Shown: positions 37,328-60,682 of the stretch, piece after piece
Layout of the letters: every line of letters begins with the position of its first letter
Position numbering within the stretch: position 1 is the stretch's first letter
Source: Escherichia phage vB_EcoS_VAH1
Sequence record: MK373792.1
Strand: one strand, 5' to 3'
Length of the DNA stretch: 64,000 nucleotides
The notes under the pieces: model-generated
The model's database searches: none
What the model was told of the DNA's origin: nothing
Seen by the model: only the letters and a program-made list of their open reading frames with translations
Program-made: the position numbers and the translations under genes

Positions 37328-37840
37328 TTATTTACCGCGGGAAATAGAGTAAATTCCATAGCGCAGCGCATCACAAAGGTGAGAGTTAGCATCATGACGT
37401 GGTTTTTCACGTGATAATTTCTCTTCACCTTCTTGGAAATCCCACTTATAGTTCTGCAATGCATGGATTAGTGAGGAACATGAAGCATCTACAATAATCT
37501 TGCCCTGCTGGAATAGCGCTTGCAAGCATGCTAGACCATCTAGGACAGATTTTTTAGCTGGAGCTGATGCAATTTCGTGCTCGTAAGCTAAGTCCTGGCG
37601 GAACTGAGCGGCGGCAGAGTCAACAAAAATACGATCAACTTTATAACGATCTATACAGTGCTGAATATAAGCAGCATGCTGAGCTGTAGTTTTTTCAGCC
37701 TGCTGGTATTCTTCTAACACGTAGTAGGTATCCGTATCGTAATGATATTTAATAGTAAGAACTGCTGTAGGATCACGATAACCAACGTCAATACCAAGCA
37801 ACGTTTCGAATGCTTCATCATCTTTAAAGAAGTGACGCAT
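37328..37840 (-). CDS. terminase large subunit, C-terminal nuclease domain (frame open up to about 37941)
   Basis: Terminase nuclease region. The frame continues upstream as NYFRQEYEADFSVFEGQIFDTFNAIDHV... to a stop adjacent to the frameshift site. Confidence 0.8.
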   Translation of the reverse strand: MRHFFKDDEAFETLLGIDVGYRDPTAVLTIKYHYDTDTYYVLEEYQQAEKTTAQHAAYIQHCIDRYKVDRIFVDSAAAQFRQDLAYEHEIASAPAKKSVLDGLACLQALFQQGKIIVDASCSSLIHALQNYKWDFQEGEEKLSREKPRHDANSHLCDALRYGIYSISRGK

Positions 37841-38643
37841 ACCTTTGAGATCTTTAACATGATCAATAGCATTAAAGGTATCAAAGATCTGGCCTTCGAA
37901 TACAGAGAAGTCAGCCTCGTATTCTTGGCGGAAGTAGTTTTACTAACTGTACGACGTGCTTCCTCAATGTCATTCAGGTCAGCACGTGGGTTATCACGAT
38001 ATGTACCATGAATAGATACCCAGTTAGGCAACGTATCATCAAATCCGTAGGCGTAAAATTCTTTAAACCAGTTACCCCCACGAGGGGTGGAAATAAATAG
38101 AGCTTTAGAATTAGGTTTATCTAGAGTAGGACGCAGCTGAACCCTGAAGGCATCACCACCCACATCGGAAATTGCCGCCTCGTCAAAGATGATAAAATCA
38201 TATGAACGTCCAACTGCGGAGTCAGCCTGAGCCGCGGAAGCTAGTTTAAATAGAGAACCATTAGCTAACTCAATCTCTTTATCTTTAGCGTTTTCACGTT
38301 CGGTTTGTAGGCCATACTTCTTAATAAGACCACGAATCTGAGACCATCCGATATTGGCCAGTGAGTAGTTAGGGGCAACTACTAGCACCTTCACATTAGG
38401 TTCCAGCAATTTTAGGAACCCAAGTGTATACGCTATAAAAGATTTACCTACACGGCGTGATACACACGCCGTTACAAAACGATGTCTAGGGTCTTCTAGC
38501 GCATTGATAATTGCTATTTGAGGGCCGTTAGGTGTAATACCCTCTTGTGCTAGTATTCCGGAAACGGGTAAACGAAAGAAACGCTTATCTATTCCGAAAT
38601 CAATAACATCTACTGTATTAACATAAGGTCTTGATACTTCCAT
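37714..38643 (-). CDS. terminase large subunit, N-terminal ATPase domain (frameshifted gene)
   Basis: Walker A-like SRRVGKS and Walker B YDFIIFDEAA. After ...DIEEARRTVSK the frame turns into low-complexity garbage. Confidence 0.85.
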   Translation of the reverse strand: MEVSRPYVNTVDVIDFGIDKRFFRLPVSGILAQEGITPNGPQIAIINALEDPRHRFVTACVSRRVGKSFIAYTLGFLKLLEPNVKVLVVAPNYSLANIGWSQIRGLIKKYGLQTERENAKDKEIELANGSLFKLASAAQADSAVGRSYDFIIFDEAAISDVGGDAFRVQLRPTLDKPNSKALFISTPRGGNWFKEFYAYGFDDTLPNWVSIHGTYRDNPRADLNDIEEARRTVSKTTSAKNTRLTSLYSKARSLIPLMLLIMLKISKVCVTSLKMMKHSKRCLVLTLVIVILQQFLLLNIITIRIPTTC

Positions 38644-39125
38644 TACTTCTTACCTCCAGTAGCTAGGGAAGTGATTAAGTCCATGTAATTTTGATCCCCA
38701 GCTCCAGCAATAATGTTATTCTGGATATTGGTCTGATTAGCAGGAGCTCGGACGGCAGCTTTAGCTTTTTCTAGCTCTACCATCATCTTCATTTCTTCCA
38801 TCTTCATTTTGTGTGCTTTCCAGAGAATATCCATAATATCTTGGTCAGAACCCATGCCGGTTTCTTCCAGTTCCTCTAGTTTACGCTTGATAACTTCATC
38901 CAGAACACCAAATAAACGATCCCTATTACGGAAACCACTCTCCATAAAAATATCATTTAAGTAGTTCTTAACTTCACTACGATTCATAATATCTCGGAAA
39001 GCAATTTCGGACATTCCAAGACTACGTGCGGCAGAAGGCACATCGCTGCCACACTGTAAATAAGCTTCAATTACATCCATCCCTTCAGGGGACATAAGAT
39101 CTGGTACTAATACATCATTTGCCAT
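38643..39125 (-). CDS. putative terminase small subunit (HTH protein)
   Basis: 160-aa ORF immediately upstream of the terminase large subunit; HTH-like [19 protein letters not shown]. Confidence 0.5.
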
Positions 39126-39135: not shown

Positions 39136-40665
39136 TTAGGTAAGGCGTTGAACTGTTACTCTTAATCTAGGTAGGAAAACTGCGCTACCCAAACTCACGT
39201 GCATAACTACTCCTAACTCTACATTTCCATTTCCTAGATTTTTAACGGTATATATAAAACTGTTTCTACTAAGAGCATTGTTAGGTGTATATCTAAAAGC
39301 AGATGTAGTATGAAAAGGTACTAGATAACCCACAGGTAGCGTTAAAATCTGGTGGAATATTGCATCTCCATTACTATAACTATGCGCTTTTCTTCCTTGT
39401 ACTTGAAATACACCATTATTCCATGTATTAGCTGGAACACCCGCACAATTAAGATTACCTGATATAACTTCAGTAGTAAGAATTACGGTAGCATTTCCGC
39501 CTGGTATACCTAGCCCAATAGTTGATAAACCAACGTATCTATCCCCAGTTCCTGGATAGTGGGGTGTAATATCATCTCCCATATAAGAACTACCTACATT
39601 TCCACTAAAAAGTCGAAGTGGAACTGCTGATGGTCCCCAAACAATCCCATGTTCATTACCAATAGTATTATTATTTGAGTTTACATACCATTGTTTACCG
39701 GCCCCAAATTTATAAATACTAATTTGAGATTTAGCCCCTCCGTAATCTACAGGAGACCACAACCCTCCATTACTAGACCCTACAAGTTCACACCTTGCAG
39801 TGGTATCCCCAAAAACCCCAGTATACGCTGCGTTATTCCCTATATACTCCATATCAGGACGGTAACCTAGGTTACCAAAAGCATTCTGATTTATAAATTT
39901 ATACCCGGTATTAGGGAGACTTACCCCTTTAATTATGAAATTAGAAGGAGATATAAGAATATCAGAACCAGTAAAGGGATTGCCTGAAATACTCATACCT
40001 CCATTCGAGTACCTTAAATTAAGAACATACCAAATAACCTTAGTAGGAGTTATATTATACCAGTCCTGTATTACCGTAGGATTGCCAGACTGATTAGCCA
40101 AATTAGTAGTAGATCCCCTACAAACAAATCTGTTCCCACCGTCGTGGTACATAGTATTTACACTACCTGGGAGCCCTTGCCTAACCCCACCATACCCACG
40201 TATATTAGAATTACAAACATAAAACCAATCATGCCCTCTATGCGCTGCTCCTAGAGGTGACATCCATCCGGGATCCCAATAGTACGGGTTATTCCCATCT
40301 ACAGGTACTGTACTACTGTTAGTAGGAAACCCTAATTGTGCAAAAGCTTCTGCAACAGTAACACCTACAGGAGCTCCCGCACCGGGCCTAACTATACCAT
40401 GGTAGGTACTATGTAATGTAGTACCCCCTGTGCCACTCCTAGATATAGATTCTTCATGCCCTAGAGAGGGATTATAATTATAAGTTCCAGATGCTAGACT
40501 ATTACCAAAGGCAAATCCACTGGTTTGAGAAACACTAGCAAAAGATCTAAAGGGATCTGCCTGGGTGGCAACTATAGTTTGACCAACTTTACTCTGAGTA
40601 CCATTAAGAAAAGCTCTGTGAGTACCATTTATCTCAATAGCAGTTAGTAACTCTACCTGGGTCAT
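39136..40665 (-). CDS. receptor-binding tail protein (T5 pb5-like), C-terminal part
   Basis: 509-aa Gly/Asn/Thr/Ser-rich ORF next to a divergent llp-like lipoprotein gene; overlaps the preceding 85-aa ORF by 32 nt in another frame. Confidence 0.55.
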
Positions 40666-40891
40666 TAGATTTAATATTTATTATGTCAGAGGGCATTTGA
40701 CATACAAAAAACCCATTCCCGGCATTACCTAATGCAGCCTCATAAGTACCATCAACTAGGACAAATGGCATATCACTATGAAAAATACTATTGGCATTTG
40801 GACTATAGTGACGATTAATGTCACCACCAGATTCAGTATTTAAAGATAGTACGGTCTTACCATCGCTATATTTTCCAGCGAAAAAACCCAT
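40634..40891 (-). CDS. receptor-binding tail protein, N-terminal 85-aa fragment
   Basis: Strong RBS AGGAGA before the ATG at 40889-40891; ends in frame conflict with 39136..40665. Confidence 0.5.
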   Translation of the reverse strand: MGFFAGKYSDGKTVLSLNTESGGDINRHYSPNANSIFHSDMPFVLVDGTYEAALGNAGNGFFVCQMPSDIINIKSNDPGRVTNCY

Positions 40892-40916
40892 ATAATCTCC
40901 TATTATAAAAATGTAT

Positions 40917-40945
40917 TTGCTTTCATCCCTCTATTTTGCTATAAT
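40917..40945 (+). promoter_or_regulatory. sigma70-type promoter for the llp-like gene
   Basis: TTGCTT (40917-40922), 17-bp spacer, TATAAT (40940-40945). Confidence 0.55.
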
Positions 40946-40976
40946 AGATTCATAAATTAGAAATGGAGAGATAAAT

Positions 40977-41243
40977 ATGAAAAAGTTTGTGATTGCACTA
41001 GTTGCCGCAGTTATGTTGTCTGGTTGTGCACCTACCCCCAAACCATTTTGTACGGGATTTGTAAAATCTTTTGGCGGTGCTGGGGAGGAGCATTACGGCC
41101 TCAAGGTTCAAAAAGTTCGTATTAAGGGAGATCGCTTCCCAGTAGTACAGCTCCGTACTAAGTTTGGGTGGTGGGATCTCAGTCAGTTTGACCTTAAATA
41201 CGGTGATTGTAAATTTAAACTAGAGCAATCTAACTACCTGTAA
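40977..41243 (+). CDS. llp: lipoprotein, Llp-like receptor-blocking/superinfection-exclusion candidate
   Basis: Signal peptide with lipobox LSGC (MKKFVIALVAAVMLSGC); divergent to and adjacent to the receptor-binding protein gene, as for llp/oad in T5. Confidence 0.65.
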   Translation: MKKFVIALVAAVMLSGCAPTPKPFCTGFVKSFGGAGEEHYGLKVQKVRIKGDRFPVVQLRTKFGWWDLSQFDLKYGDCKFKLEQSNYL

Positions 41244-41846: not shown

Positions 41847-42057
41847 TATTATAATTGCTTTTATTATCGGGGTACTTGCGGGAATTTTCGGAATGACTGC
41901 GGCTATTAACAAGCATCGTAAGTATACTGCGGAAGTATCGCGGGAGATTGCGGAAAGGGAGCGGAAGTTTGACGAGAAACGTGCGGAGTTTGAGCGGGAG
42001 TGGAATGATGGTTCAAGAAGTTCTCGGAGGAGATTCAAGATAGATGGCAAATCATAA
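41839..42057 (+). CDS. small membrane protein (72 aa)
   Basis: N-terminal TM helix and a charged C-terminal tail. Confidence 0.5.
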   Translation: MFSIIIAFIIGVLAGIFGMTAAINKHRKYTAEVSREIAERERKFDEKRAEFEREWNDGSRSSRRRFKIDGKS

Positions 42058-42541
42058 ACCTCTACTTCCCTTAGCAGAATACCAGAAGAAATTTGATTAT
42101 GACCCTGAAACCGGTATGTTTACTTGGAATTCAGGGAGTCGTAAAGGTAAACCAGCAGGTAGTAGAAATAGTTCAGGAATATCCCTATCAATGGGTAGTA
42201 ATGGGCTATATAAGGCCCATCGGGTAGCGTATCTATACATGACAGGAGAAGACCCGGGTGAATTTCTCATTGATCACAAAGATCAAGACCCCTTCAACAA
42301 TAGGTGGAATAACTTACGTAAAGCAACAAATGCAGAGAATGGAAAAAACTCTTCGGGATGGAAGAATGAGTCTACAGGGGTTAAGGGAGTATATAAACGC
42401 GAGGAGGGAAAGTTCGAAGCAAAACTACGTGTAAATGGTAATAGAATTACCATAGGAACTTTTAAAACTCTTGAGCAGGCTGAAAAAGAACTTAGAAAAG
42501 CCAGGGAGCATTACCACGGTGAGTTTGCAAACCATAATTAA
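42044..42541 (+). CDS. HNH homing endonuclease
   Basis: PETGMFTWNSGSRKGKPAGS...YKAHRVAYLYMTGEDPGEFLIDHKDQDPFNNRWNNL; same family as 2199..2732 and 9787..10263. Confidence 0.8.
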   Translation: MANHKPLLPLAEYQKKFDYDPETGMFTWNSGSRKGKPAGSRNSSGISLSMGSNGLYKAHRVAYLYMTGEDPGEFLIDHKDQDPFNNRWNNLRKATNAENGKNSSGWKNESTGVKGVYKREEGKFEAKLRVNGNRITIGTFKTLEQAEKELRKAREHYHGEFANHN

Positions 42542-43491: not shown

Positions 43492-43518
43492 ATTGCCCGC
43501 TTATAAATAGCGGGCAAT
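43492..43518 (-). other. perfect 9-bp stem-loop downstream of the A2-like gene
   Basis: ATTGCCCGC-TTATAAATA-GCGGGCAAT; no U-tract follows on the minus strand. Confidence 0.4.
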
Positions 43519-43531
43519 AATAAATCAACTA

Positions 43532-43927
43532 TTAAAGACCATAAGCCAACGCATCAGCGATAAAACTAATATCCTCACCTGATACATCGGAACGGATGCC
43601 CGCGCATGTAAATACCTTCGCGCTCATTAGCTGATCATCAAGGCAAGCGGGGCAAGGCGCGACAACTGCAAAGGCTAGGCCTGATTTCACCGCGTCGATG
43701 ATAATCGTTTCCTGTTTTACCGTGTCAATGTAAACGCCTTTCGCCTTGATGCGGCTGGATAGTTTGCCCGTGGTATAGGCGAAAGTCGTGATCTGAAGCG
43801 CCTCGTTAAACTCCATCAAATCATCAACAACGTGACCGGCCTCAACGTGATACCGCTCACCATTTGAATAAACTAGGACGATGGAAGAATGAGCGCGATC
43901 GAATGGAATACGGTTATTAATAGCCAT
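43532..43927 (-). CDS. pre-early protein, A2-like by position
   Basis: 131-aa ORF immediately downstream of the A1-like gene; called by synteny with T5 only. Confidence 0.4.
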   Translation of the reverse strand: MAINNRIPFDRAHSSIVLVYSNGERYHVEAGHVVDDLMEFNEALQITTFAYTTGKLSSRIKAKGVYIDTVKQETIIIDAVKSGLAFAVVAPCPACLDDQLMSAKVFTCAGIRSDVSGEDISFIADALAYGL

Positions 43928-43996
43928 GTTTATAACTCCAATTAATTTAATAAACTTTTATAGCGGCGGTATATTTCATCCGCCCGCCTGATTTAA

Positions 43997-45661
43997 TTAC
44001 GAGAAAAATTTACCATTTTTAAAGTCGATCAAGGTGCGTTGACCGTTTGCATAGGTAATAACATGCGTTTGTGTCCAGCTTGACGCGCCAACGTTATAGC
44101 CCATATCAAGGGAACCAGACACGCCAGCGGTATAAACGCCGCCGTAGATGCTGGCGGTGTGAGTGTGCCCCGTGTTTAATTTGCCCAATTTCTTAAACTG
44201 TTTTGGATTTCCACGGCTCCCGTTAATGCCGTTGTGACCATGTACACCGCACTCAATGCCTGCAATCTTGAAAGATTGATCAGTCGTTAGGAAAATTGCG
44301 TTAAACTCACAACCTGCAACCTTGCGCAGCGCATAATCTAGCACGTTGAAGGTGTCATCTTTTTCTGCAATAGCTCCGTAAATCGCAGCATTAAGGCGGT
44401 GATACAGTTCCGCGTTGGCTGGGTCGTCTTTAATGTTGGCGTTACGATCATCCAGCCAACGTGATAGCGCCAGATCGTGATTAGATTCAACAATGATTGT
44501 TTGACTAAAATCACGTTCCATCGATTCCAGCACGCGCCCCGTATCGATAAGATCATCCAGAACTTTATCACGTCCGGCTGCATATTGTTTTGCTAGGAAT
44601 ACACCGGACGCACGATTATGATGATTGCGCGATGTAAAATCATGCACGTCATGGATAAACTGATATTTTGGTTTAAGAATATCAAGCAAGCTATTTTCGC
44701 CAGCCCATGACGCAGCGGCGCAATCGTCATCTAATTTTTCGGCGTGTATGTCACCGTATTGTAAACCTAAAACATGCCCCGATGTTTCATAGCATCCTGC
44801 GGGAGTAGCGCAAACATTCAGATCATAAAACACGCCGCTTTCGTCCATCGTTTCAAGCTGGCGCACAAAAAACTCACCGTCTTCGTCGAACTCAACAATA
44901 AGCGCACCGAAGTTATGCAGCGCCTCGGCCTTTTGTCCTGCTTTCTGCTGGATGTAATTTTTTAGCGTCGCCGTGCCGGTTGAATACATACGGCGTACTA
45001 CTTCACCTTTTAAAGCTGGAACGCTTTCGGCGGTGATTTTAGCGTGACCAATTGCCAGACCTTCAAGATTAAGCGCGGTTGCAGTTTCAGCGAATCCAGA
45101 AAGCGGATAATCTGCGGTGGGCAAAACATTAATTTCAGCCATGAAAGCAAAGCGGCGATTGTTTAAAAACACGTTTTTATTGCAGATATATTTGTCAAAC
45201 GCGGAATCATATTTGATTCCGTCAGCACCTTCCCCATTTTGAAAACCGTTTTTATTATAAATATACTTGCTAACCAGCAAATCAGCGCCAATAAATTGGG
45301 CATATTGTTCAAGCGAGGCTAAAAAGTTTTTATGCGGGAAAGTATTATTCTGAATCGATGTAATAATAAAGCGTTTACCTTGTTTTACTTCCCAGCTTTC
45401 CACCGTGCTAGAAATAACTCCAGCGGCTTCAGGGCGGTCATCGTTTTTTATGGCTTTTGCTACTTTCGCCGCTTTTGGTTTCGCTGGTTTATTTGCTTCC
45501 AACCAGTCACAAATCGCGGTCGAGTGTTTTGTAGTATCATAGACCGCTTTTGAAATATCGTCGCAGACTTCCAGTTTAGTAGCGCGCAGACGTTTACCGT
45601 AGAAATTGAAATCAGCGGCCATTTTCAGGATAACGGTTTGTTTTTCTGCGGAAATAATCAT
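43997..45661 (-). CDS. A1: pre-early A1-like protein with calcineurin-like metallophosphoesterase motifs
   Basis: 554 aa; metallophosphoesterase-like motifs GDIH, ESNHD, GHTHT; higher GC than the surrounding genome. Confidence 0.7.
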   Translation of the reverse strand: MIISAEKQTVILKMAADFNFYGKRLRATKLEVCDDISKAVYDTTKHSTAICDWLEANKPAKPKAAKVAKAIKNDDRPEAAGVISSTVESWEVKQGKRFIITSIQNNTFPHKNFLASLEQYAQFIGADLLVSKYIYNKNGFQNGEGADGIKYDSAFDKYICNKNVFLNNRRFAFMAEINVLPTADYPLSGFAETATALNLEGLAIGHAKITAESVPALKGEVVRRMYSTGTATLKNYIQQKAGQKAEALHNFGALIVEFDEDGEFFVRQLETMDESGVFYDLNVCATPAGCYETSGHVLGLQYGDIHAEKLDDDCAAASWAGENSLLDILKPKYQFIHDVHDFTSRNHHNRASGVFLAKQYAAGRDKVLDDLIDTGRVLESMERDFSQTIIVESNHDLALSRWLDDRNANIKDDPANAELYHRLNAAIYGAIAEKDDTFNVLDYALRKVAGCEFNAIFLTTDQSFKIAGIECGVHGHNGINGSRGNPKQFKKLGKLNTGHTHTASIYGGVYTAGVSGSLDMGYNVGASSWTQTHVITYANGQRTLIDFKNGKFFS

Positions 45662-45757
45662 ATTAATAAAACTCCATTAAAGGGATTAAAAACGTTTGTT
45701 ATTGGCAAATATTGCCAAATATAACGCCTTGAATAATAGGCGTTATAATTTGCAACA

Positions 45758-45955
45758 TTAATTTAAAGGCATAAGGCTAGAACTAACACCACAAGCAACG
45801 GCAACAATAAAGCAAAGTAAGCCTAAACGCTTCGCTAGTTTAGATTTACGTTTAAAATAATATGAATCTAAATCATTTTGAAAATAAGCAAATAATAATG
45901 AGGCCGCCATAATAAATAAGCCTAGAATGAGGGATTCAGTAGGGTAAAAGATCAT
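45758..45955 (-). CDS. small membrane protein
   Basis: 65 aa with two predicted TM helices. Confidence 0.45.
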   Translation of the reverse strand: MIFYPTESLILGLFIMAASLLFAYFQNDLDSYYFKRKSKLAKRLGLLCFIVAVACGVSSSLMPLN

Positions 45956-46011
45956 TTTAAAACTCCAGTCAAAGGGAAATTATAGTGGGGAATATTCCCC
46001 ACTAATTAAAT

Positions 46012-46428
46012 TTATTCACCTGCGGCCTGTTTTACTTCATCGGCAACGCCCAATAGTTGCGCCACGGCGTCCAGCGTTTCCAATTTTGCGCTTTCCAGTG
46101 ATGCCAGATCGTCAGCGTCTTTGATAATGCCGGAATCGATGGCATGTTTTGCAATGACGCGTACATAATGCGCCTTGCGAATTGAACTGCCGCCGCCAAC
46201 TTTGCGCGGCTTATCGCTTTTCTGATACGCTTTTGCGCTGGTCAATTTTGAGCGAACAGACACGGGAGAAGCCGCGCCAACTGTTTTTGCAATCTCTTTC
46301 AGGCCGTCGCTGTTAGCGAACTCCAAGCCGTTTTCATTGATGAGCTGTTGATACATGGTAACAGCCTGTTGGGTGTTTTCTTCATTCCATGCGAATTTTG
46401 CGGATTTTTCGGTTTTAACGTTAGCCAT
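46012..46428 (-). CDS. hypothetical pre-early protein
   Basis: 138-aa ORF with RBS GGAG; preceded by an operator-like palindrome. Confidence 0.5.
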   Translation of the reverse strand: MANVKTEKSAKFAWNEENTQQAVTMYQQLINENGLEFANSDGLKEIAKTVGAASPVSVRSKLTSAKAYQKSDKPRKVGGGSSIRKAHYVRVIAKHAIDSGIIKDADDLASLESAKLETLDAVAQLLGVADEVKQAAGE

Positions 46429-46463
46429 GATTGTAACTCCTATCGATTTAATTTAAGGGATAA

Positions 46464-46512
46464 GATTAACATAATGTTAATCGTTATATACCCCGAACTA
46501 CTGGGGTATATA
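46464..46512. promoter_or_regulatory. operator-like 19-bp palindrome plus 10-bp-stem hairpin
   Basis: GATTAACAT-A-ATGTTAATC (46464-46482) and TATATACCCC-GAACTACT-GGGGTATATA (46485-46512). Confidence 0.45.
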
Positions 46513-46526
46513 AAAGTAACACTAAA

Positions 46527-46778
46527 TTACGCTACAGCTTCCCATTTTTCGTTGCGCTGGATAACCTTTACAACGTCGCCGGATTTAACCCGAACGCTAT
46601 AAATAGTTTTTCCGTTGTTACTCCGTTCCGTTTCAGCGTATACCGCGTCAATCACATCAAACGGCATAAGCGCCGCGCCTTTGATGCGTTCGGCCTTTCC
46701 GGTTAATTCGTCCGTTTTAGTAACGAAAGGGATGAAAACGGATTGACCAATTTTTGGCGCATTAGTAACGTTTTTCAT
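46527..46778 (-). CDS. hypothetical pre-early protein
   Basis: 83-aa ORF with RBS GGAG. Confidence 0.5.
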   Translation of the reverse strand: MKNVTNAPKIGQSVFIPFVTKTDELTGKAERIKGAALMPFDVIDAVYAETERSNNGKTIYSVRVKSGDVVKVIQRNEKWEAVA

Positions 46779-47010
46779 GGTATAAACTCCAGTTTATTCA
46801 GTGGATTGTTCCGCATTACCTGCTGTAAAAATAGTGGCAGGTAATAAGTAACAATCCGCTCGCCATTATAATCAATTTAAAGAACTCCTCTCAGGCCGCT
46901 ATATCCCAGTTAGGGGGCGGGGCACATTATGGTAAGTGCCGACCGTCAAATTGTATCAAGTTATCGCTCTTATCGAACTGGGTACATCTTAAAGCCTATC
47001 GGCTAGGGTG

Positions 47011-47214
47011 TCAAACAATTTTTTGCAGTTTTTTATGATTTTCTTTCAAGTCAATCATAATGTTTCGCCAGATCATTTCCAGACCTTGCTGGCGGCCTTT
47101 CTTGTACTGCGTGAATCTATATTTTACGGATTGCTGAGCTATTGTCAACAATTTTTTAGTAGTACCATCCAATTTTTTGGCGGGTTTACCAGTGATCAAT
47201 AAAGTTTGTTTCAT
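47011..47214 (-). CDS. hypothetical basic small protein
   Basis: 67-aa Lys-rich ORF. Confidence 0.4.
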   Translation of the reverse strand: MKQTLLITGKPAKKLDGTTKKLLTIAQQSVKYRFTQYKKGRQQGLEMIWRNIMIDLKENHKKLQKIV

Positions 47215-47715
47215 ATCTGCGATTCCTTATATTATATAAGTTTTCCGCCGATAGACTTTAAGATATACCCAATTTTTAAAGAGCGCGGCGGTAAACTTCC
47301 CCGCCGTTGTAGTCCGTTGCCGTCCTACGAGATAAATAATAGGTGATTCCCAAAAATGGCGCAACCTTATTTTTGTAAAGAAACGTAAAGAAAGCAAATA
47401 ATCGCAGGGTGTCCGGCGATTGCCTAAGTTTAAAGGAAACGGGCGCGCGAATACCATAAAACCGAGCAGATAGGCAAGTAATTTTTTCATTTATATTTGC
47501 TTTGCCCTACTTGACAAATCTTAAAAAGCTCGTGGTAGCGATAAACGAGGGTAGGCAATGCAATGGCATACCTGAAAATTTTACCGCTTTCTAGGGCGTT
47601 TTAGGCGGCTCATTTTCGATTTAACAAATATTTAACAAAAGCAAAATTGAAAAATAGTTTGAAAAGGTATTGACTTTTTAAAATCAAGACTAAACGAGTT
47701 ATTTTATAAAATTAA

Positions 47716-48234
47716 TTAATTGACAATTCCAAATTCAGCTTTTTTAGTTTCTACCCATAATAATAACTCTTGTAAATCATAACCTGATTTACTAACACTT
47801 TTGTTACTAGTAGGATCTTTAACTATAGCGCGCAAATAGTTTCTTCCGTTATTATCAACTCTAGAACCATTATAATAGATATGCTTAGGCAACTTATTAG
47901 CACGCTTATAATCTTTCTTGTTATTCATATTCTGCTTATGATCTACTAAGCGAAGATTATTAATGTTATTATTAGCACGGTTACGATCATTATGATCGAT
48001 TGTTAGATTGCTATCAATCTCACCATTAAATAATACCCATATTATTCTATGCACTGCGTATTGTTCGCCTGCTAACTTTACTCGATAGTAACCTGTGTTA
48101 CTATAATGCCCTGCAATATCACCCACCTTACTATTACCTTTCTGTACTTTCCACCTTAGAAATGATGGGGATGTTTCATCATAATAAAAGTTATCATTAG
48201 CAAGCGAATAATCTATATCTTTAAATAGACCCAT
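47716..48234 (-). CDS. HNH homing endonuclease
   Basis: YAVHRIIWVLFNGEIDSNLTIDHNDRNRANNNINNLRL HNH motif; AP2-like C-terminal domain. Confidence 0.75.
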   Translation of the reverse strand: MGLFKDIDYSLANDNFYYDETSPSFLRWKVQKGNSKVGDIAGHYSNTGYYRVKLAGEQYAVHRIIWVLFNGEIDSNLTIDHNDRNRANNNINNLRLVDHKQNMNNKKDYKRANKLPKHIYYNGSRVDNNGRNYLRAIVKDPTSNKSVSKSGYDLQELLLWVETKKAEFGIVN

Positions 48235-48425
48235 TGTTATAGTTTCCTTATGTTATTAGTTTAATCTCTATTATATTATATCAAAATCATTAGCAGACTA
48301 CCTAATGAGTTTTTCAGGTTTAATTAGCAGACTCATAATCACTCTAAAAACCTATTAGCCAACTAACTATATTTTATTATATAATAACAACATAAATTAG
48401 TTAGTGAGAAACACTATCATTTAAG

Positions 48426-48533
48426 TTATCCACAGGTTTATACATTTTGTAAATTTGATTGACACAATAGGAAGGCTTTATAGCACTTTTACACAGACTT
48501 ATCCACAGGTTATTCCACTGTATAAATATACAG
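48426..48533. promoter_or_regulatory. DnaA-box pair plus 16-bp palindrome module (copy 1)
   Basis: TTATCCACA at 48426-48434 and 48499-48507; palindrome CTGTATAAATATACAG at 48518-48533. Confidence 0.55.
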
Positions 48534-48799
48534 GGTAAAGGGGAAGCATATTATAATGATGCCCAAAATAAGCGGCCTAAAACGCTTTCTAACGAGCTAA
48601 ATGCGGTGGGGTAATATTAAAGTAAAGCCTTCACCCGTCGCCCTGGTGGCTTCACCGTGTTTTGCTCTTTACTGTACCGCTGCGCGGTTAGCATAAAACT
48701 AGGCGTTAGGCAAGGAAAATAAAAAGGTAAAATAATATTTGCCTATGCTAGAAAATTACCTTTACCATTCACTCACCGATTAACGAGGGAGGCCAACAA

Positions 48800-49777
48800 A
48801 TGAGGCTGTATAAACCAGATAACGCAACCGTCTTAAAAGGTGCGCTGCGTAACCTGCTGGACGGTAGCAGAACAACCAGCATCAAACATTTTGTTAACAA
48901 GGCCGAAGATATTCACCAAAACTTTTTTGATGATTTCGATGCCTATGATATGAGTAGTTTTTTGCAACTGTATAAGCAAGGGGCAACGATTATCTTGTAT
49001 AATCGAGATAATCACTTGCTTACTAGCAGGGGGCCGGATACTGATTTTATAATCGTAAAAGGTAGCATAGTAAAAGCCTATGATACTGGGGCGGGCTTAG
49101 AAGTTTTTTCAATAGAAAATTATGAAGCCAACCCCAATGATCTTTATGACGTAGAAAATTTTCTCGATTCATTTTGGCGTTATTTATCAGTTGGCTGGAA
49201 TCGGTCAATTGGTGACGGGTATCGTCTGGCGGCTGTAATGGCTTTTGATGACGATGGCAATTTTTTGCTACCACGGGAGCTATACCCATATGTATATGAT
49301 GGCGACATCGAAAGCGCGGGCTTTTCTTTCTGGAAGGAGGAGGATCAGCCTATTGACAACACGGAAAAACATGCTGTAAATTCTAACACTCAAACCATTG
49401 AAAACAAAGGAAAAAATGCCATGACCAAGATCGCTAATATCGTTGCCGCTAATAAGTCCGCCGTTGTAAATGCTGCAAAACTGGAAGCGGGTAAAATTGC
49501 ACTGACTCAAATTACGAAAGTAGCGGCTAAAAAAGCACCGTTTATTATCAAGGGTTATATTGATACGCCGATTGGTCGGGTAGTGATTGCCAACCTGCTG
49601 AGCGTAGCGGTTGACCAGTACGCCCCAAGTAACCAAAAGGCGAAAGCGGTAGCGGATGCAGCTATGGAAGCGGCTATGTTAGAAATGGTGCAATCTTTTA
49701 ACATTGCTGAGATGATTGATGAAATGGTGAAAGGTATTGATATTTCTACTTTTACCGTTAACACCGAAAACGAGTAA
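48800..49777 (+). CDS. hypothetical protein (pre-early region)
   Basis: 325-aa ORF with RBS GAGGGAGG; no recognisable motifs. Confidence 0.55.
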   Translation: MRLYKPDNATVLKGALRNLLDGSRTTSIKHFVNKAEDIHQNFFDDFDAYDMSSFLQLYKQGATIILYNRDNHLLTSRGPDTDFIIVKGSIVKAYDTGAGLEVFSIENYEANPNDLYDVENFLDSFWRYLSVGWNRSIGDGYRLAAVMAFDDDGNFLLPRELYPYVYDGDIESAGFSFWKEEDQPIDNTEKHAVNSNTQTIENKGKNAMTKIANIVAANKSAVVNAAKLEAGKIALTQITKVAAKKAPFIIKGYIDTPIGRVVIANLLSVAVDQYAPSNQKAKAVADAAMEAAMLEMVQSFNIAEMIDEMVKGIDISTFTVNTENE

Positions 49778-49897
49778 TAGTTAACCTAGTGTAAAGTTTT
49801 GTAAAGGTCGCCATAATCGGCGGCCTTTTTTGTTATAATGCCTTTACACCGTTCGAGGACGGTTGAAAATTTTCCCAAAAAATTTTGGAGGCTTAAA

Positions 49898-50128
49898 ATG
49901 GTTGCATATTCTTCTTCTGACGCTCTTTTCACTGGAAAAGGCTGGGTATCAAATCGCTGGATCATTCAAGAAATGGTGCAAGAATACGGCATTGCTAAAA
50001 CTTACACTACCATTCAGGCGCTTTATGATAATGATCAAATTGATCAGCAAACAGCGGGCTTTTTGCTGGATACCCTGAAGGCGGAACATTGCACTAAAAA
50101 ACAAGCTGCAAAAATTATTTTAATGTAA
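49898..50128 (+). CDS. hypothetical small protein
   Basis: RBS TGGAGG before ATG 49898; the ORF-track start at 49838 is an upstream in-frame Met without an RBS. Confidence 0.45.
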   Translation: MVAYSSSDALFTGKGWVSNRWIIQEMVQEYGIAKTYTTIQALYDNDQIDQQTAGFLLDTLKAEHCTKKQAAKIILM

Positions 50129-50177
50129 GTAATAACGGGGGATATACAGTATCCCCCACTAACTAGGGGAAATAAAA

Positions 50178-50324
50178 ATGGTTATTTTTCGGTCAATTCT
50201 AGCGGGTATCTTGGGCGCTATTTTATCCCTTTTTGCAATAGCTTTCGACGTTCACGCGGTTACTATTGGCGCGGGTATCGCTGTTTTTTCTTATTTGCTG
50301 GGCTGCATGAGTAAAGGAGAATAA
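50178..50324 (+). CDS. small membrane protein (48 aa)
   Basis: RBS AGGGGA; two hydrophobic helices; preceded by hairpin GGGGGATA-TACAG-TATCCCCC. Confidence 0.4.
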   Translation: MVIFRSILAGILGAILSLFAIAFDVHAVTIGAGIAVFSYLLGCMSKGE

Positions 50325-50326
50325 AA

Positions 50327-50539
50327 ATGATTCGTAACGTTTCCCTTGCCCGTTCCAAAGGCTTTAAGCTGGTGGACGTTAACACGTTCGAACGGGAAGA
50401 CTGTAAAATCGAATATATAGCACGGAATAAAAACGCCTTTCGTGTTACAGAAAAGAAATTTGATAAGCGTGGCAACGTGATAGCTGAAAAGGTTAAATAT
50501 TTTGCCACCTTTTACGCTGCATTTCGTGGGGTACTATGA
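50327..50539 (+). CDS. hypothetical small protein
   Basis: 70-aa ORF tightly packed after the previous gene. Confidence 0.45.
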   Translation: MIRNVSLARSKGFKLVDVNTFEREDCKIEYIARNKNAFRVTEKKFDKRGNVIAEKVKYFATFYAAFRGVL

Positions 50540-50766
50540 AAAGCGTTGTTGTTATTATCCTTGCAATGGTTGGCGGTTTTACTGCCACCTTATTTAAGAA
50601 TGATCCCCTTTTACTGGGGATTTTTATGCTTTTATCTGGTTATCTGATTGGGAGGCTAACAAATGATTCAACAAATTAAAAGGGCGTTCCAATATTGGGG
50701 CGTCCTGCCTTCAATCGGTTTTATTCTGATAATCATTAGTCAGCTAATGATTATAGGCGGAACTAT

Positions 50767-51126
50767 TTGGGAGCTATGCAAATGGTAATTTATGAGGGCA
50801 ATCGCTTTGTTACTAATTGCCGTCCGGCATTGTTAGCAAACTACTTAAACCAGCTTTCACCTGAATATAAGGGCGTCATTAATATTTACGAGGGAAAAGC
50901 GCATTATAAAATCAATGCGGTCGTTGCCCGTGAACTAGCGTTTCAATTTTTAACCTTTGCATCGTGTGATATTCAGGTCATGGGTGAGGCATTAATTGCA
51001 GAAAATGAAGACGATTTTATTAATATTTTTCGCAAGGTGTGCACCGAGCGCCTGATCATGAAAGGCGCATATATTCAATCAACGGCGGATAGTATTGAAA
51101 CAGCGTTTCGAAAGGTGGCGCAATGA
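50767..51126 (+). CDS. hypothetical protein
   Basis: 119-aa ORF. Confidence 0.5.
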   Translation: MGAMQMVIYEGNRFVTNCRPALLANYLNQLSPEYKGVINIYEGKAHYKINAVVARELAFQFLTFASCDIQVMGEALIAENEDDFINIFRKVCTERLIMKGAYIQSTADSIETAFRKVAQ

Positions 51127-51227
51127 GATTATATATTTTCATTGGTAATGTTAAGGCTGCAAATGATTCCGCCGGGGGCGATAATGTTCGCCACTATTGG
51201 CAAAATTATATTTACTAGGGCGTTATT

Positions 51228-51422
51228 ATGAGCAATAAAATTATTGTAACCAAAACTACCACAATGGTTGACGTTTTTTATGTGCCCGATACGCTGGAAA
51301 ACCGGCAAGCGGTCGAGCGTGGCGAGTATGATAAAGTGATTTATGATCACGATGGTTATTATAAGCATTTGGTGGATTCCTACGGGGAGGAGGAAAAAAT
51401 CACGCATCAATTACCGGACTGA
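51228..51422 (+). CDS. hypothetical small protein
   Basis: 64-aa ORF with an acidic C-terminus. Confidence 0.45.
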   Translation: MSNKIIVTKTTTMVDVFYVPDTLENRQAVERGEYDKVIYDHDGYYKHLVDSYGEEEKITHQLPD

Positions 51423-51661
51423 CAACAAGCGGGGCGCAACTATCAGGGAGTGCCCCCAATTCTCAAATGAGAATGATTCTCATTTGACCGCGCCCGCGAT
51501 GGTTAGCCTGCTAATGATTAGGGTGTTACGTGTCGCCTTGTGTGATAGTTAGCGAGCTAACTAATTTTCAAGCCTCCTCCAATTTTGCCCTTGTTTTAGT
51601 ATCCCCATCAAAATAAAACGCGTTAGAATGCGATTCAGGGCGTTTTAGGCCTATATTAGAA

Positions 51662-51789
51662 TTATCCACTGTGTAGGAATACTGTATAAATATACAGTAG
51701 GATAAGCTGTGGATAAGTCTGTTGATAACGCTTCAAAATGGCTAGAATTCTGTCAAGGCAAATCGTGCTGTTGATAAGTCTGTGGATAA
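51662..51789. promoter_or_regulatory. cluster of five DnaA-box-like sites plus 16-bp palindrome (copy 2)
   Basis: TTATCCACT (51662-51670), TGTGGATAA (51708-51716, 51781-51789), TGTTGATAA (51720-51728, 51769-51777); palindrome CTGTATAAATATACAG at 51682-51697. Confidence 0.6.
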
Positions 51790-51814
51790 CTTAAATAACA
51801 GTGTTTCTCACTTC

Positions 51815-51980
51815 CATTCTTAAATGAGAATCATTATCATTCGTATTCCACTTTTTAAATGAGAATCATTTCACTTTTTAAATGAGAATCATTTCACTTT
51901 TTAAATGAGAATCATTCCCTTTCTTAAATGCGAATCATTATCATTCGCATTTCACTTTTTAAATGAGATTGATTCTCATT
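51815..51980. repeat. tandem array of about six ~21-bp repeats (consensus TCACTTTTTAAATGAGAATCATT)
   Basis: Direct reading: repeated TTAAATGAGAATCATT cores with sub-repeats CATTATCATTCGCATT. Confidence 0.75.
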
Positions 51981-51999
51981 ATCATTCGCATTCAGGCGA

Positions 52000-52017
52000 G
52001 CAGGGCAATTGCCCTGC
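52000..52017. other. perfect 18-bp palindrome GCAGGGCAATTGCCCTGC
   Basis: Perfect dyad, followed by a short T-run (GCTTTTG). Confidence 0.5.
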
Positions 52018-52022
52018 GCTTT

Positions 52023-52803
52023 TGTGCAAATCCGACATTTGCTCCAAGGGTTACGTGCTGGCGTGTATGTGCGAATCCGACAATTTTTGGTAGTGTGCAA
52101 ATCCGACCCGAAAAATTTTTATAGTGTGCGAATCCGACAATGAATTTTCCCAAAAACTCCAGCAATCACGAACTGCGTTCGAATCCTGTGGGATATGTGC
52201 AAATCCGACACGGTTTTTCTAGGATTAAGATGTGCGAATCCTACAAGATTTTTGTGACTTCGATGAGAGGGTGTGTGATTGTATAGGTTTGAGGAGAAGT
52301 TGAGAGAGCGAGAAAAATTTGGGGAGCTAGAAGGATGTGGGCGCAGGATTGGTGCGAAGCACCTGATTTGCGGGGATTTTGGGGAAGAGTTGAGATAATT
52401 TGGGGAAATTTGAGATAGGTGCAGAAAAAGTAAAATTTTATTAGCAAAATGGGGCAAAATAGCTTGACAAGTGAAAATTCTTGTGGCTCTAAAAACTCAG
52501 GCAATCATGGGCCTTCGGCCCGAAATAATGCTGCTATTTTCAGGAGAGTAAGAGTTCCTAAAAACTTAGGCGTTTGTGCAAATCCGACCATAAATTTCTA
52601 GAAATGCAGTGTGCAAATCCGACAGTAATTTCTGGAAATGTGTTTTCAAAAAATGTCTCCTAGAAATAACCGCCCTCCCTATAACCGCCCTGTATTAAAC
52701 CGCCTAGTATATGTAACGTTGGAGAGAAACTGCCCTAGAATATGTGCAAATCCGATGAATATTTTTGTGCTTATCAATTTCCTAGAATATGTGCAAATCC
52801 GAT
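52023..52803 (+). repeat. dispersed array of ten 15-bp iterons, consensus TGTGC(A/G)AATCCGACA
   Basis: Copies at 52023, 52068, 52095, 52125, 52196, 52231, 52575, 52610, 52743 and 52790, all in the same orientation. The last two lie in a duplicated ~35-bp unit; TGTGCTTATCAATTTCCTAGAA is also duplicated. Confidence 0.75.
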
Positions 52804-53176
52804 GAATATTTTTGTGTGATCTCTAGAATTTGTGCTTATCAATTTCCTAGAAACTTAGGAGTCTAGAAGAAAGTGTTGTGCCATCCTAGCAGATGAGCGG
52901 CAACCGGTGTATCATCTTGAACACAGATATTGCCTTTAAATATTATAAGGTAAATTAAAAGTAAAGTAGCCCCCATTACATGTGTGCTTACTCGTGGGGC
53001 GCGTGATTAATTACGTAAGTCCTCGACTGTCATACCCCTGTTGCTCGGTCGCAAAGAGTTAACGAAGTCTCGTGTAATAATCATCGCCCCTAGAGTTCAA
53101 AACAAGAGTTGTTTTTAATCTATGTGATTATTATAACATGTGCCGCAATGAGTTGTCAAGAAGATTTTGTTAACTT

Positions 53177-53560
53177 TTATTCCTCCTCTTCGAGATTGGT
53201 ATTGGGATCGTAAATTTTCTTGGCTCCTGTATTTAATAGGAATCGCTCTGCAAGTTGTGGGTGAATATCAAAGAACTCTGTGCATCCTTCGAATCCCTTT
53301 AAATTACAGCGGTATTTCTTAAAGTAGATATGAGCAGCGGCTTCTAGATCTCTAGGATTATGGGTTTCATAAATCCCATACACGTATAAATCGTCAAAAC
53401 CTCGATAGACTATCTTATCTAAGTTTAGTGTTTGAATCCTATTATGTGGATTCATACTGATACCGATCTTTGTTCTTTTAGGGATCTTCGTCAGATCCCT
53501 ATTTGCAAGAATATATACTTTATATAGTGACATTCTTTCTAGCCTTGAGTTTGATACCAA
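53177..53560 (-). CDS. T5orf172 (GIY-YIG-like) domain protein
   Basis: KVYILANRD...KIGIS...RIQTLNLD...YVYGIYETHNP...GCTEFFDIH matches the T5orf172 domain pattern; TTG/ATG start ambiguous. Confidence 0.6.
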   Translation of the reverse strand: MVSNSRLERMSLYKVYILANRDLTKIPKRTKIGISMNPHNRIQTLNLDKIVYRGFDDLYVYGIYETHNPRDLEAAAHIYFKKYRCNLKGFEGCTEFFDIHPQLAERFLLNTGAKKIYDPNTNLEEEE

Positions 53561-54236
53561 GAGATGCGAAGTAGATATAAGTTGCTAAATAGGACATAGC
53601 AGATCCTGTCTCTTCGTAAGAGAGAGTTCCTTTCACGTACCTCTTATATTCTGGCTCTAGATTAATAATCGTAGTACTTGGCAATCCTAGCGAATTACAT
53701 AATGATTTGAATGTTTCTTTATCTCTATGAATCGCATAGTGAATGGCTTTCTCCATTGGAGTTAACTCTAGATCTTTGGTAATGGCTACATGCAAACTCG
53801 CTATAGTCATGCCAATCCCACGATACGTTTCTTCTTTATTAAGGGAAGGTCTCTGTTTTTCTAGCTCAGGAAGATGTGCAAATTCTCCCTTCTTTCTAGG
53901 AATCTTATCATCACTAAGTAATGCTGTTAAGAAATCTGTTTCTTCATAGGCTGGGAGCACTTCATCAATTAATACTAGAATAGAGCTAGCATTGATACCT
54001 TTCGCACTAGGATCTAAAGATTTTAATGCTTTATTAGTTTCAACGTAGGAGCCTGCTAACACAACTTTTGAGCTATTCCGATCATATTTAATTTTATTCG
54101 CTTCCCAACGCGCAGGACGATAATCAGATAGAAACATTACCGCATACTTTTGTTCATCTGTTAGCTCGGAGAAACATTTCTGGTTTGATTCTTTTGCTAG
54201 CGCAATAAGGTGCTTTAGTTTTTCTGCTTTATTCAT
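53520..54236 (-). CDS. hypothetical protein (possibly the N-terminal part of the T5orf172 protein)
   Basis: 238-aa ORF overlapping the downstream ORF by 41 nt in another frame. Confidence 0.5.
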   Translation of the reverse strand: MNKAEKLKHLIALAKESNQKCFSELTDEQKYAVMFLSDYRPARWEANKIKYDRNSSKVVLAGSYVETNKALKSLDPSAKGINASSILVLIDEVLPAYEETDFLTALLSDDKIPRKKGEFAHLPELEKQRPSLNKEETYRGIGMTIASLHVAITKDLELTPMEKAIHYAIHRDKETFKSLCNSLGLPSTTIINLEPEYKRYVKGTLSYEETGSAMSYLATYIYFASLGIKLKARKNVTI

Positions 54237-54238
54237 TG

Positions 54239-54628
54239 TTAGACCTCCTGAGCTTTATCTTCTGTATAGAAATCTTCGGTAGCTTGATAATGTAATGTAA
54301 AGAATTCAAAAGACAGGCAATCTGATGCTGTATTTTGAATGTATCTTAATTCATTAATAAAGGATTCTTTGAAGATCTTACGGTTAGGTTTTAGTTCTAT
54401 CAGTTGGTTAATAAGCTCATCGATTAATTCTATTGCATCATCTATATACTCATCCATAAATACTGGGGATTCATAGATTATTTCTTCAACTCCGTTAGTA
54501 ACTAAAGCGACTACAATTACCTCTCCCGTAGTTTCTTCAGGGTAAAGATAACCTGAATCTACTTTACGAACAGTAACGCGAGTTTGGCTAGTAATTTGAC
54601 GATTTATAGCAATAATATAATGTAACAT
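54239..54628 (-). CDS. hypothetical acidic protein
   Basis: 129-aa ORF. Confidence 0.5.
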   Translation of the reverse strand: MLHYIIAINRQITSQTRVTVRKVDSGYLYPEETTGEVIVVALVTNGVEEIIYESPVFMDEYIDDAIELIDELINQLIELKPNRKIFKESFINELRYIQNTASDCLSFEFFTLHYQATEDFYTEDKAQEV

Positions 54629-54702
54629 AAATTCTCCTAATATGCCTCTCCTATTAAAAGGTCTGGAGAGGCGTAGACCTATAAATTAGTTAACGATCTT
54701 TA

Positions 54703-55296
54703 TTAATCCTTTTTACTTTCGTTAATAACAGCTCCCAGTGCTTCCATAATTGTATCTTCTAGACTTCCATGTTTATCAGGATTGCTTAAGTGAATAGTAT
54801 ATGAGTTCCTAGAAACTCCAGAGTCCACAGGTGCTACGCTTTTCATGTCAGATTCAAAAGCTTCTTGAGTATGTTTCAACTGTGCAGAAGGTCCATAATC
54901 TTCACCAAACTTATATGACTGCGTACTACTTACCACACCCCCACAAGGAACATTGTGCAAATCCGATGATTTATTTAGCATTGAGATTGTCCCTGACTGC
55001 CACGGATCTCTAATAGTCACAGGAGTACTAGGACGGTTCACCTCAGTCTTCACGAGTTTATAGCCAGCATCTATTAATGCGTTAATAAGGTTATCAGCTG
55101 GAATGCGAGCCTTGCCAAAAATCTCACGAGCGTTGTTGAGCCTACCTTCAAAACCTTTACATGCTCTAATATTAGTGTGTGCAAAGGTTAGCTTCATAGA
55201 TTTGAATTGTACAGTAGCAGTTAAATCTTTAAAGCTATAATCCCATGTGTTCAGTTCATGGTCTGGTACTACTTGAATAGGTTGTTGTGTAAACAT
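54703..55296 (-). CDS. hypothetical protein
   Basis: 197-aa ORF. Confidence 0.5.
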   Translation of the reverse strand: MFTQQPIQVVPDHELNTWDYSFKDLTATVQFKSMKLTFAHTNIRACKGFEGRLNNAREIFGKARIPADNLINALIDAGYKLVKTEVNRPSTPVTIRDPWQSGTISMLNKSSDLHNVPCGGVVSSTQSYKFGEDYGPSAQLKHTQEAFESDMKSVAPVDSGVSRNSYTIHLSNPDKHGSLEDTIMEALGAVINESKKD

Positions 55297-55481
55297 TATT
55301 TATTCTCCAGTTTGTCTAACAGTTTATGGGCTGCTAGATTATATTGTTTGAGTTCACGATTAAGGATTTGGTTCTCACACTTTAGTTCTATGTTCTCCTT
55401 ATTAAGAATACTACAGATTAATAGGAGTGCTAATATAACTACTAACGAACCTACGAGCATTAAAAGAAAAAGAGTTTCCAT
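55296..55481 (-). CDS. small membrane protein
   Basis: 61 aa; TM helix plus coiled-coil tail. Confidence 0.4.
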   Translation of the reverse strand: METLFLLMLVGSLVVILALLLICSILNKENIELKCENQILNRELKQYNLAAHKLLDKLENK

Positions 55482-55714
55482 TATTTAATTCCCATATAGC
55501 GTTTGAGATACGTGATGAAGTCTTCCGCTGTATGCGCTACGCTACCTTGAGCTACAAATACTTTTAAGGTCGCTCGCTGTAGTTTAAGGGTAGCCAACTC
55601 ACCACGTAATTTTGTTATATCTTCAGCTAGTTCTCTAGCTCTGCGCATAATAGCAAATGATACAAATGTTACAATAAATAACATAACTGCTAAAATAATT
55701 ACTATGATCTCCAT
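55481..55714 (-). CDS. small membrane protein
   Basis: 77 aa; N-terminal TM helix. Confidence 0.4.
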   Translation of the reverse strand: MEIIVIILAVMLFIVTFVSFAIMRRARELAEDITKLRGELATLKLQRATLKVFVAQGSVAHTAEDFITYLKRYMGIK

Positions 55715-55992
55715 ATTAACATCCAGCTCTTATCGTATATTTGGGCATGTTCTACTAATTCATTTATCGATGTAGAATTATCGTAGATACCCTCTAGTAA
55801 ACGTTTTCTGTCAAATTTATCAACCAAGTACTCTGTGCCATTTATCACTACCCTATACAGCTCTGGAACTAAGGGGTGTTTGTTTGGTATTGGACGACTA
55901 CCTAAGTCTATTTCATTATACCCCCACGTTGTTTTAAATAGTTTATTACTAAGTGCTGCTAGTGGGTTTGACCATACAATATAGCTACTCAC
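55702..55992 (-). CDS. hypothetical protein
   Basis: 96-aa ORF. Confidence 0.45.
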   Translation of the reverse strand: MSSYIVWSNPLAALSNKLFKTTWGYNEIDLGSRPIPNKHPLVPELYRVVINGTEYLVDKFDRKRLLEGIYDNSTSINELVEHAQIYDKSWMLIWRS

Positions 55993-56431
55993 TACTTATC
56001 TCCATTCTTAACTTTGAAAACTTATTATACCAAACTATGTGATTATCGTCAATTACAAATTTATGGTAACATGCTGGTACGGTATAAGTTCCATAATCCG
56101 TGACACGCTGCACAACCTTGTGTGCACACAGTCGACACCCATGCCCTTCTAAATGAGATCTAGCAGTTTGCCAGTAATAACCATCATGATCTGGACAATA
56201 GATCTCGACTTGCTGTTGCATTGTCTTATAATTTACACGCTCATACCCGAAGAAAGCTCCATGAGCTGCAATGGCTTTCTTGATAAATATAAGGTTTAGT
56301 GCTTCTTGTTGAAAGTCGGGGTGTAGTTGCTTAATCTTAGTTCTATTAATAGACCCATCCGATTTGATGAACCTATTTATTGGGAAGTTGTTAGCTTCCT
56401 CGATTAATAATTCATTTACTTTCTCTCTCAT
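55985..56431 (-). CDS. hypothetical Cys/His-rich protein (putative zinc-binding)
   Basis: CPDHDGYYWQ...HGCRLCAH; start set at the internal ATG at 56429-56431, 2 nt downstream of the upstream gene's stop codon. Confidence 0.45.
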   Translation of the reverse strand: MREKVNELLIEEANNFPINRFIKSDGSINRTKIKQLHPDFQQEALNLIFIKKAIAAHGAFFGYERVNYKTMQQQVEIYCPDHDGYYWQTARSHLEGHGCRLCAHKVVQRVTDYGTYTVPACYHKFVIDDNHIVWYNKFSKLRMEISSE

Positions 56432-56432
56432 A

Positions 56433-56636
56433 TTATATACTCTCACAACTAAGGTGGAAACATTCGTAAGCATCCCCAGTAAACTCTTTATCTTGTAATA
56501 AGCACTTAGCCTGGTCTTCCGGTACTCCAGCATCTAATAATTGTTGTTTACTTGGCTTTTCAGCGAATACTTTTACAAAGTACTCACCATCTTGATTATA
56601 CTCATTTATATCTCTAGTAAGGACATATACTTGCAT
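56433..56636 (-). CDS. hypothetical small protein
   Basis: 67-aa ORF. Confidence 0.4.
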   Translation of the reverse strand: MQVYVLTRDINEYNQDGEYFVKVFAEKPSKQQLLDAGVPEDQAKCLLQDKEFTGDAYECFHLSCESI

Positions 56637-60665: not shown

Positions 60666-60682
60666 TTACTCCTTTTTTTGTA

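Follow-up and report, generated by a model that had tools for sequence, protein, structure and literature searches.

Does a tail protein gene that appears in two overlapping pieces opposite to a small lipoprotein gene represent an unusual two-part recognition system or a known one with a broken sequence, and which receptor would it serve? The question is raised by a locus of Escherichia phage vB_EcoS_VAH1, in the stretch of 64,000 nucleotides (nt) of sequence record MK373792.1 analyzed here, which as a whole is referred to as the window. An earlier description of the locus, made from the letters without database searches (the sequence-only reading), proposed a split pb5-like receptor-binding gene facing an llp-like lipoprotein gene. 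Our analysis points to a host-recognition module of the BF23 type found in the genus Tequintavirus, formed by a receptor-binding protein (RBP) that would bind BtuB and an Llp lipoprotein that would block BtuB, with the split of the RBP gene being most likely a sequence error; we place the probability of this reading as a whole at about 0.87. The features of the module are as follows (lengths of proteins and open reading frames, ORFs, in amino acids, aa).

39136-40665, minus strand: ORF of 509 aa, from the ORF list.
40634-40891, minus strand: ORF of 85 aa, from the ORF list.
40634-40665, minus strand: 32-nt overlap of the 85-aa and 509-aa reading frames, which lie in different frames, from the ORF list.
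39136-40891, minus strand: gene of the receptor-binding tail-tip protein, a hrs/oad homologue of BF23/BtuB type.
40897-40901, minus strand: Shine-Dalgarno sequence AGGAG of the true RBP start (ATG at 40891), in gene sense TAATAGGAGATTATATG.
40647-40648, minus strand: site of a 2-nt deletion, in gene sense GTTATACTAAC to GTTACTAAC (TATA to TA), from the alignment with ESCO40.
40977-41243, plus strand: llp, precursor of a receptor-blocking (superinfection-exclusion) lipoprotein of 88 aa.
41025-41027, plus strand: codon of Cys17 of Llp, the predicted lipidated residue, which follows a predicted signal peptide of residues 1-16.
40917-40945, plus strand: llp promoter, with -35 TTGCTT at 40917-40922, a 17-nt spacer, TG at 40937-40938 and -10 TATAAT at 40940-40945.

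The three ORFs and the overlap between different frames are found in the ORF list where the sequence-only reading had placed them. Both minus-strand ORFs are real coding sequence and not chance, because their products matched successive sections of PHROG 4815 'receptor binding tail protein': profile positions 1-81 in the case of the 85-aa product (E 2.7e-48) and 82-650 in that of the 509-aa product (E 2.2e-217). The gene is one coding sequence (CDS) of 1758 nt and 585 aa in ESCO40, phiLLS and Cit2, and it is also a single CDS in DT57C (1761 nt), BF23 (1788 nt) and T5 (1923 nt). The window gene measures 1756 nt and its alignment with ESCO40 contains one gap only, of 2 nt; the frame shifts after codon 81 and a frame-0 stop appears four codons on. 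Where a member of the pb5/Hrs family would show one uninterrupted ORF of about 585-640 codons, the window thus shows pieces of 85 and 509 aa. By sequence comparison the two ORFs are the parts of a single receptor-binding gene of the pb5/Hrs family, broken by a frameshift, as had been suspected. The composition of the repaired protein (13.5% Gly, 9.2% Asn and 9.1% Ser) agrees with the Gly/Asn/Ser-rich tail protein described earlier. The true start has the Shine-Dalgarno sequence listed above, and none is present upstream of the internal ATG at 40665 that begins the 509-aa ORF (AATATTAAATCTAATG). The RBP family was not found among the Pfam models, and the lone Pfam match in the 85-aa piece, a sub-threshold KOW domain, was dismissed as chance.

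We looked for the interruption in other records with a tblastn query consisting of the repaired N-terminal 189 aa of the RBP, which span the break; 529 records matched, and 60 rows were drawn from all parts of the ranking. Each of these rows (60/60) showed one continuous match, and the 45 sampled records that matched all 189 aa (66.8-98.9% identity) crossed the break point uninterrupted in every case (45/45). A degenerate-pattern search for the deletion allele gave no match in viral, metagenome or genome collections, while the control pattern for the intact allele found 14 IMG/VR contigs. The exact 42-mer over the deletion junction was absent from IMG/VR, and the 509-aa product, when searched for, was not on record. 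The window contains at least four indels that break the frame of essential genes; the RBP deletion is one, and others affect the following two genes.

7123-8474, plus strand: replicative helicase gene, in three frames (450 aa in ESCO40), with one C too many at 7262 (CC to CCC) and one T too many at 7692 (TT to TTT).
37328-38643, minus strand: terminase large subunit (TerL) gene, split into ORFs of 309 aa and 170 aa, with one T missing at 37938 (TTTTT to TTTT).

The helicase protein segments flanking the indels are 96-99% identical to ESCO40. The TerL gene is 1316 nt long in the window versus 1317 nt in ESCO40 and T5, and protein identity is 99.6-100% on either side of its break. Since a lytic phage cannot carry four lethal frameshifts, and since the deletion allele is unique among the sequences searched, the split is most likely a sequence error and not biology, and draft-quality sequence appears as the simplest reading; the real phage almost certainly has a single intact RBP gene. 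One point weighs against this interpretation: the RBP indel is a dinucleotide slip, unlike the three homopolymer indels, so its status as an artefact is one that we infer. The same difference in kind, and the position of the indel in a TATA dinucleotide repeat, prone to replication slippage, would suit a genuine deletion carried by a defective genome or a minority variant. In that case the RBP would be truncated after 85 aa and the particles would be non-infectious unless complemented by wild-type siblings. Such a deletion seems improbable to us because a strictly lytic phage without RBP cannot propagate, so that it could not dominate the stock, because the helicase and terminase genes are also broken in the window, which would require four independent lethal mutations, and because no other sequence searched carries the allele.

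A functional split deserves far less credit. It would imply either that a programmed +1 or -2 ribosomal frameshift restores the full-length protein or that the RBP consists of two pieces, one of 85 aa as adaptor to the fibre and one of 509 aa for receptor binding. Two points are in its favour, and nothing else speaks for it: a 585-aa product would result from a -2 shift at GTT-A, and the break is located near the end of an N-terminal segment (residues 1 to about 90-104) whose conservation extends to T5 and H8. However, a known slippery motif is absent there, no relative has conserved the arrangement, given the uninterrupted reading of all sampled records covering it, and the 509-aa ORF has neither a ribosome-binding site nor a recorded product. 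With conservation, slippery site and ribosome-binding site all lacking, both the programmed frameshift and the two-subunit RBP were rejected. We consider it just as implausible that the deletion is real in an infectious phage that would make its RBP, full-length or in two pieces, by a -2/+1 frameshift or by reinitiation after the conserved N-terminal fibre-attachment segment. A sequence error remains the preferred explanation, and the annotation should either merge the two ORFs into one RBP gene or flag a probable sequencing error.

The RBP identities given from here on refer to the 585-aa protein with the two bases restored, unless the 509-aa part is named. This repaired RBP showed 98.3% identity with that of ESCO40, 97% with Cit2, 74% with DT57C Hrs and 67-68% with BF23 Hrs (BLASTP, end to end). 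Its match with T5 pb5 also ran from end to end, with 29-33% identity (E 3e-55), and the pb5 chains 8b14_B and 8a8c_B of the PDB were recovered with E 3e-48. The proposal of a pb5-like RBP was therefore sound, as the long ORF aligned with both BF23 Hrs and T5 pb5 over their lengths and found pb5 in the PDB. The 509-aa part was 95.4% identical to DaisyDussoix (BASEL phage Bas31), for which the BASEL supplement lists BtuB as terminal receptor, and 64-66% identical to EPS7, S132, TrudiRoth/Bas30 and BF23, each of which is cited or has been shown to bind BtuB. In the RBPs of T5, S131 and H8, good alignment was confined to the first 88-104 residues. Van den Berg et al. described a pb4-interacting part in pb5, to which this conserved N-terminal segment may correspond. 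The most divergent stretch with respect to BF23 Hrs comprises residues 100-250 (32-58% identity per 50-aa bin), and a like mosaic pattern was reported for DT57C Hrs by Golomidova et al. (PMC4728585). As far as identity bands define its class, the RBP groups with those of BtuB-dependent phages and apart from the FhuA and FepA clusters. The evidence supports an RBP-Llp pair of the BF23/DT57C/Bas31 type that would use BtuB and not FhuA, which bears out the earlier expectation of a receptor other than T5's. Accordingly, BtuB, the transporter of colicin E and vitamin B12, is predicted to serve the phage as terminal receptor.

A different specificity has been published for a phage with nearly the same protein. 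PMC12980165 infers FhuA for Cit2, whose RBP is 97% identical to that of the window, from a stated identity of 96.9% to the T5 RBP; transferred to the window, the RBP allele would recognize FhuA like T5 while its Llp would be of BtuB type, the 'decoupled' module proposed for Cit2. In a direct BLASTP comparison, however, the Cit2 RBP (OP745948, 437-2194) showed 30% identity with T5 oad (NC_005859, 8428-10350, 640 aa), not 96.9%, and the same paper reports 67-73% identity of the Cit2 RBP to BtuB binders. Moreover, Bas31, a carrier of the window allele, is listed as BtuB-dependent and the partner Llp is of the BtuB-blocking kind. FhuA specificity as claimed for Cit2 was rejected on this direct comparison, and we find it hard to credit for the window allele. 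An incorrect identity value appears to underlie the published assignment; the receptor of Cit2 is most likely BtuB, in which case the RBP and Llp of this phage would form a matched pair.

The gene facing the RBP gene encodes a protein with the N-terminus MKKFVIALVAAVMLSGC and the lipobox LSGC. Cleavage is predicted between MKKFVIALVAAVMLSG and CAPT, with Cys at +1 and Ala, not Asp, at +2, and the Pfam model LPAM_1 gave 23.9 bits against a cut-off of 20. Over its full length the protein matched PHROG 1119 'Cor superinfection exclusion protein' (E 2.6e-26), as did T5 Llp (E 1.1e-19). It is identical to BF23 Llp at 87 of 88 residues, and the mature form differs from the Llp of BF23 and DT57C at one residue only, T20 for A20. 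These data support an Llp-type receptor-blocking lipoprotein, and the 88-aa llp-like lipoprotein with a lipobox of the earlier description is confirmed by the LPAM_1 match and the near-identity with BF23 Llp. Compared with T5 Llp, the window Llp shows about 30% identity over 67 aa (E 2e-4), and the BF23-type Llp and T5 Llp are each other's best match in fold comparison. The cysteines are placed at 17/25/78 in the window Llp versus 16/26/73 in T5 Llp; Cys25 and Cys78 were invariant in 12 homologues, and in T5 Llp the two further conserved cysteines form an intramolecular disulphide. The BF23-type and T5-type Llp, often called non-homologous, therefore share one profile family. The sequence-only reading had regarded both proteins of the module as divergent, which is true with respect to T5 but not to other characterized proteins, to which they are near-identical.

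According to PMC4728585, BF23 Llp blocks BtuB and prevents superinfection; btuB mutants are resistant to phages of the BF23/DT57C group, and in the presence of cloned DT57C llp, BF23 and the DT57C group plated more than 100-fold less efficiently, with T5 unaffected. Because the partner Llp is near-identical to a BtuB-blocking Llp, the BtuB assignment of the RBP is independently supported. The llp promoter had been called a textbook sigma70 promoter. This holds for its perfect -10, extended by the preceding TG, and for its 17-nt spacer, but not for the -35, which matches 3/6 of the consensus. Both hexamers recur in the BF23 record DQ097178, annotated there as the -35 and -10 signals of llp. A consensus promoter scan did not list the llp promoter, which it missed because of the poor -35, and a terminator scan found none.

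The position of the RBP gene can be judged from its neighbor.

38643-39125, minus strand: terminase small subunit (TerS) gene, 10 nt downstream of the RBP gene; 100% aa identity with ESCO40 TerS.

Since the TerS gene adjoins it, the locus occupies the canonical T5-like RBP position. PMC8594841 places the pb5/Hrs-type gene directly upstream of the TerS/TerL genes and divergent from llp, and the window gene lies likewise upstream of the terminase genes and opposite to llp.

BtuB use and Llp exclusion have been demonstrated in the literature for near-identical proteins, and in the window phage they are predicted to operate in the following way. The 585-aa Hrs, a T5 pb5 homologue, would be located where the straight central fibre ends and would bind the outer-membrane vitamin B12 transporter BtuB, with commitment to DNA ejection as the result. 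The llp gene would be transcribed divergently from its own sigma-70-type promoter, presumably early in infection. Llp would then be exported, lipidated at Cys17 and, with Ala at +2, sorted to the outer membrane, where it would inactivate BtuB as a phage receptor, so that infected cells and debris stop adsorbing phages of the same receptor type. Other T5-like phages that depend on BtuB are expected to be excluded by the phage. Van den Berg et al. showed that T5 Llp is periplasmic, binds a non-native plug conformation of FhuA and causes two extracellular loops to fold inward over the site of pb5, and they proposed this 'jamming' for other TonB-dependent transporters. By analogy, the window Llp would probably act from the periplasmic side, with the plug of BtuB jammed and extracellular loops folded inward, as T5 Llp does on FhuA; we infer this from the lipobox with Ala at +2, the shared cysteine pattern and the common membership in PHROG 1119.

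The module is already known: genetic work on BF23 and DT57C has characterized it, and about 100 sequenced T5-like phages carry it. This had escaped the sequence-only reading, as had the fact that the frameshift is one of at least four and most likely a sequence error. The BF23 hrs-llp module (DQ097178; Mondigler et al. 2006, insofar as cited in PMC4728585 and PMC10644984) shares with that of the window the divergent gene pair, the nearly identical Llp, the llp hexamers, homology over the full length of Hrs and the BtuB receptor by prediction; it differs in the size of Hrs (595 aa versus 585 aa) and in the frameshift of the window gene in this sequence. Golomidova et al. (2016, PMC4728585) demonstrated by experiment the use of BtuB and the cross-exclusion by Llp in DT57C and DT571/2. 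There, as in the window, a Hrs diverged from that of BF23 is paired with an almost unchanged BF23-type Llp, but the RBP allele is another one (74%); the window allele is that of AKFV33, phiLLS, chee24, ESCO40 and Bas31. ESCO40, Cit2, phiLLS, chee24, Bas31 (DaisyDussoix) and Bas32 (IrisVonRoten) share this RBP allele, with 95-98% aa identity, together with the same Llp and flanking genes, differing in that their RBP gene is intact at 1758 nt whereas that of the window is 2 nt short. About 100 sequenced phages fall in the band of 95-99% aa identity to the window RBP.

More distant systems show the same arrangement to different degrees. T5 has oad (pb5) upstream of the terminase genes, a divergent llp, a pb5 homologous over its full length and an Llp in PHROG 1119; yet its receptor is FhuA, its pb5 has 640 aa and its Llp 77 aa. 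Structures are available for T5 FhuA-pb5 (8A8C, 8B14) and FhuA-Llp (8A60). The Cor proteins of T1 and phi80 (PHROG 1119) are likewise small outer-membrane lipoproteins that block the TonB-dependent receptor of the phage itself, with a match at the profile level; their target is FhuA, however, and they come from small siphoviruses that are unrelated. Two records with other host labels, OR849067 (Listeria phage LM 4-14-1) and MG065692 (Campylobacter phage C13), contain this enterobacterial T5-like RBP with 95-97% aa identity, and these labels are probably due to contamination or mislabelling.

The window is T5-like, of the genus Tequintavirus; its DNA shares about 92-93% identity with that of ESCO40 in a comparison of 20 kb, and 95.8% in the module. 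Within the phage collection, identity to the window reached at most about 96% for the module and about 93% for 20 kb. The gene order is that of ESCO40: portal, endonuclease, TerL, TerS and RBP, followed by llp in the opposite direction. ARAGORN found no tRNA genes in positions 1-64000, so the T5-type tRNA cluster lies outside the window. The lateral tail fibre locus (15100-18200, minus strand) is unlike that of ESCO40: two ESCO40 proteins (559 and 88 aa) had no match in it, and the 815-aa fibre protein of ESCO40 matched in its first 244 aa only, with 56% identity. Since this locus diverges, O-antigen specificity probably differs from that of ESCO40.

Downstream of llp, an HNH homing-endonuclease gene of 165 aa (42044-42541, plus strand), 95% identical to ESCO40, is placed between small membrane-protein genes and the dNMPase gene; the records of T5, BF23 and DT57C have no endonuclease CDS annotated in the corresponding stretch. 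Weakly HNH-like sequences (29-51% identity) were located at about 2190-2675, 9800-10250 and 62630-63000. Finally, in 43500-52700 and 52700-64000, the stretch that follows the pre-early (terminal repeat) genes continues directly into sequence found in relatives at about 9.8-20.8 kb, just after the left terminal repeat; it seems that the assembly of the genome contains one collapsed copy of the terminal repeat and is permuted or circularized.
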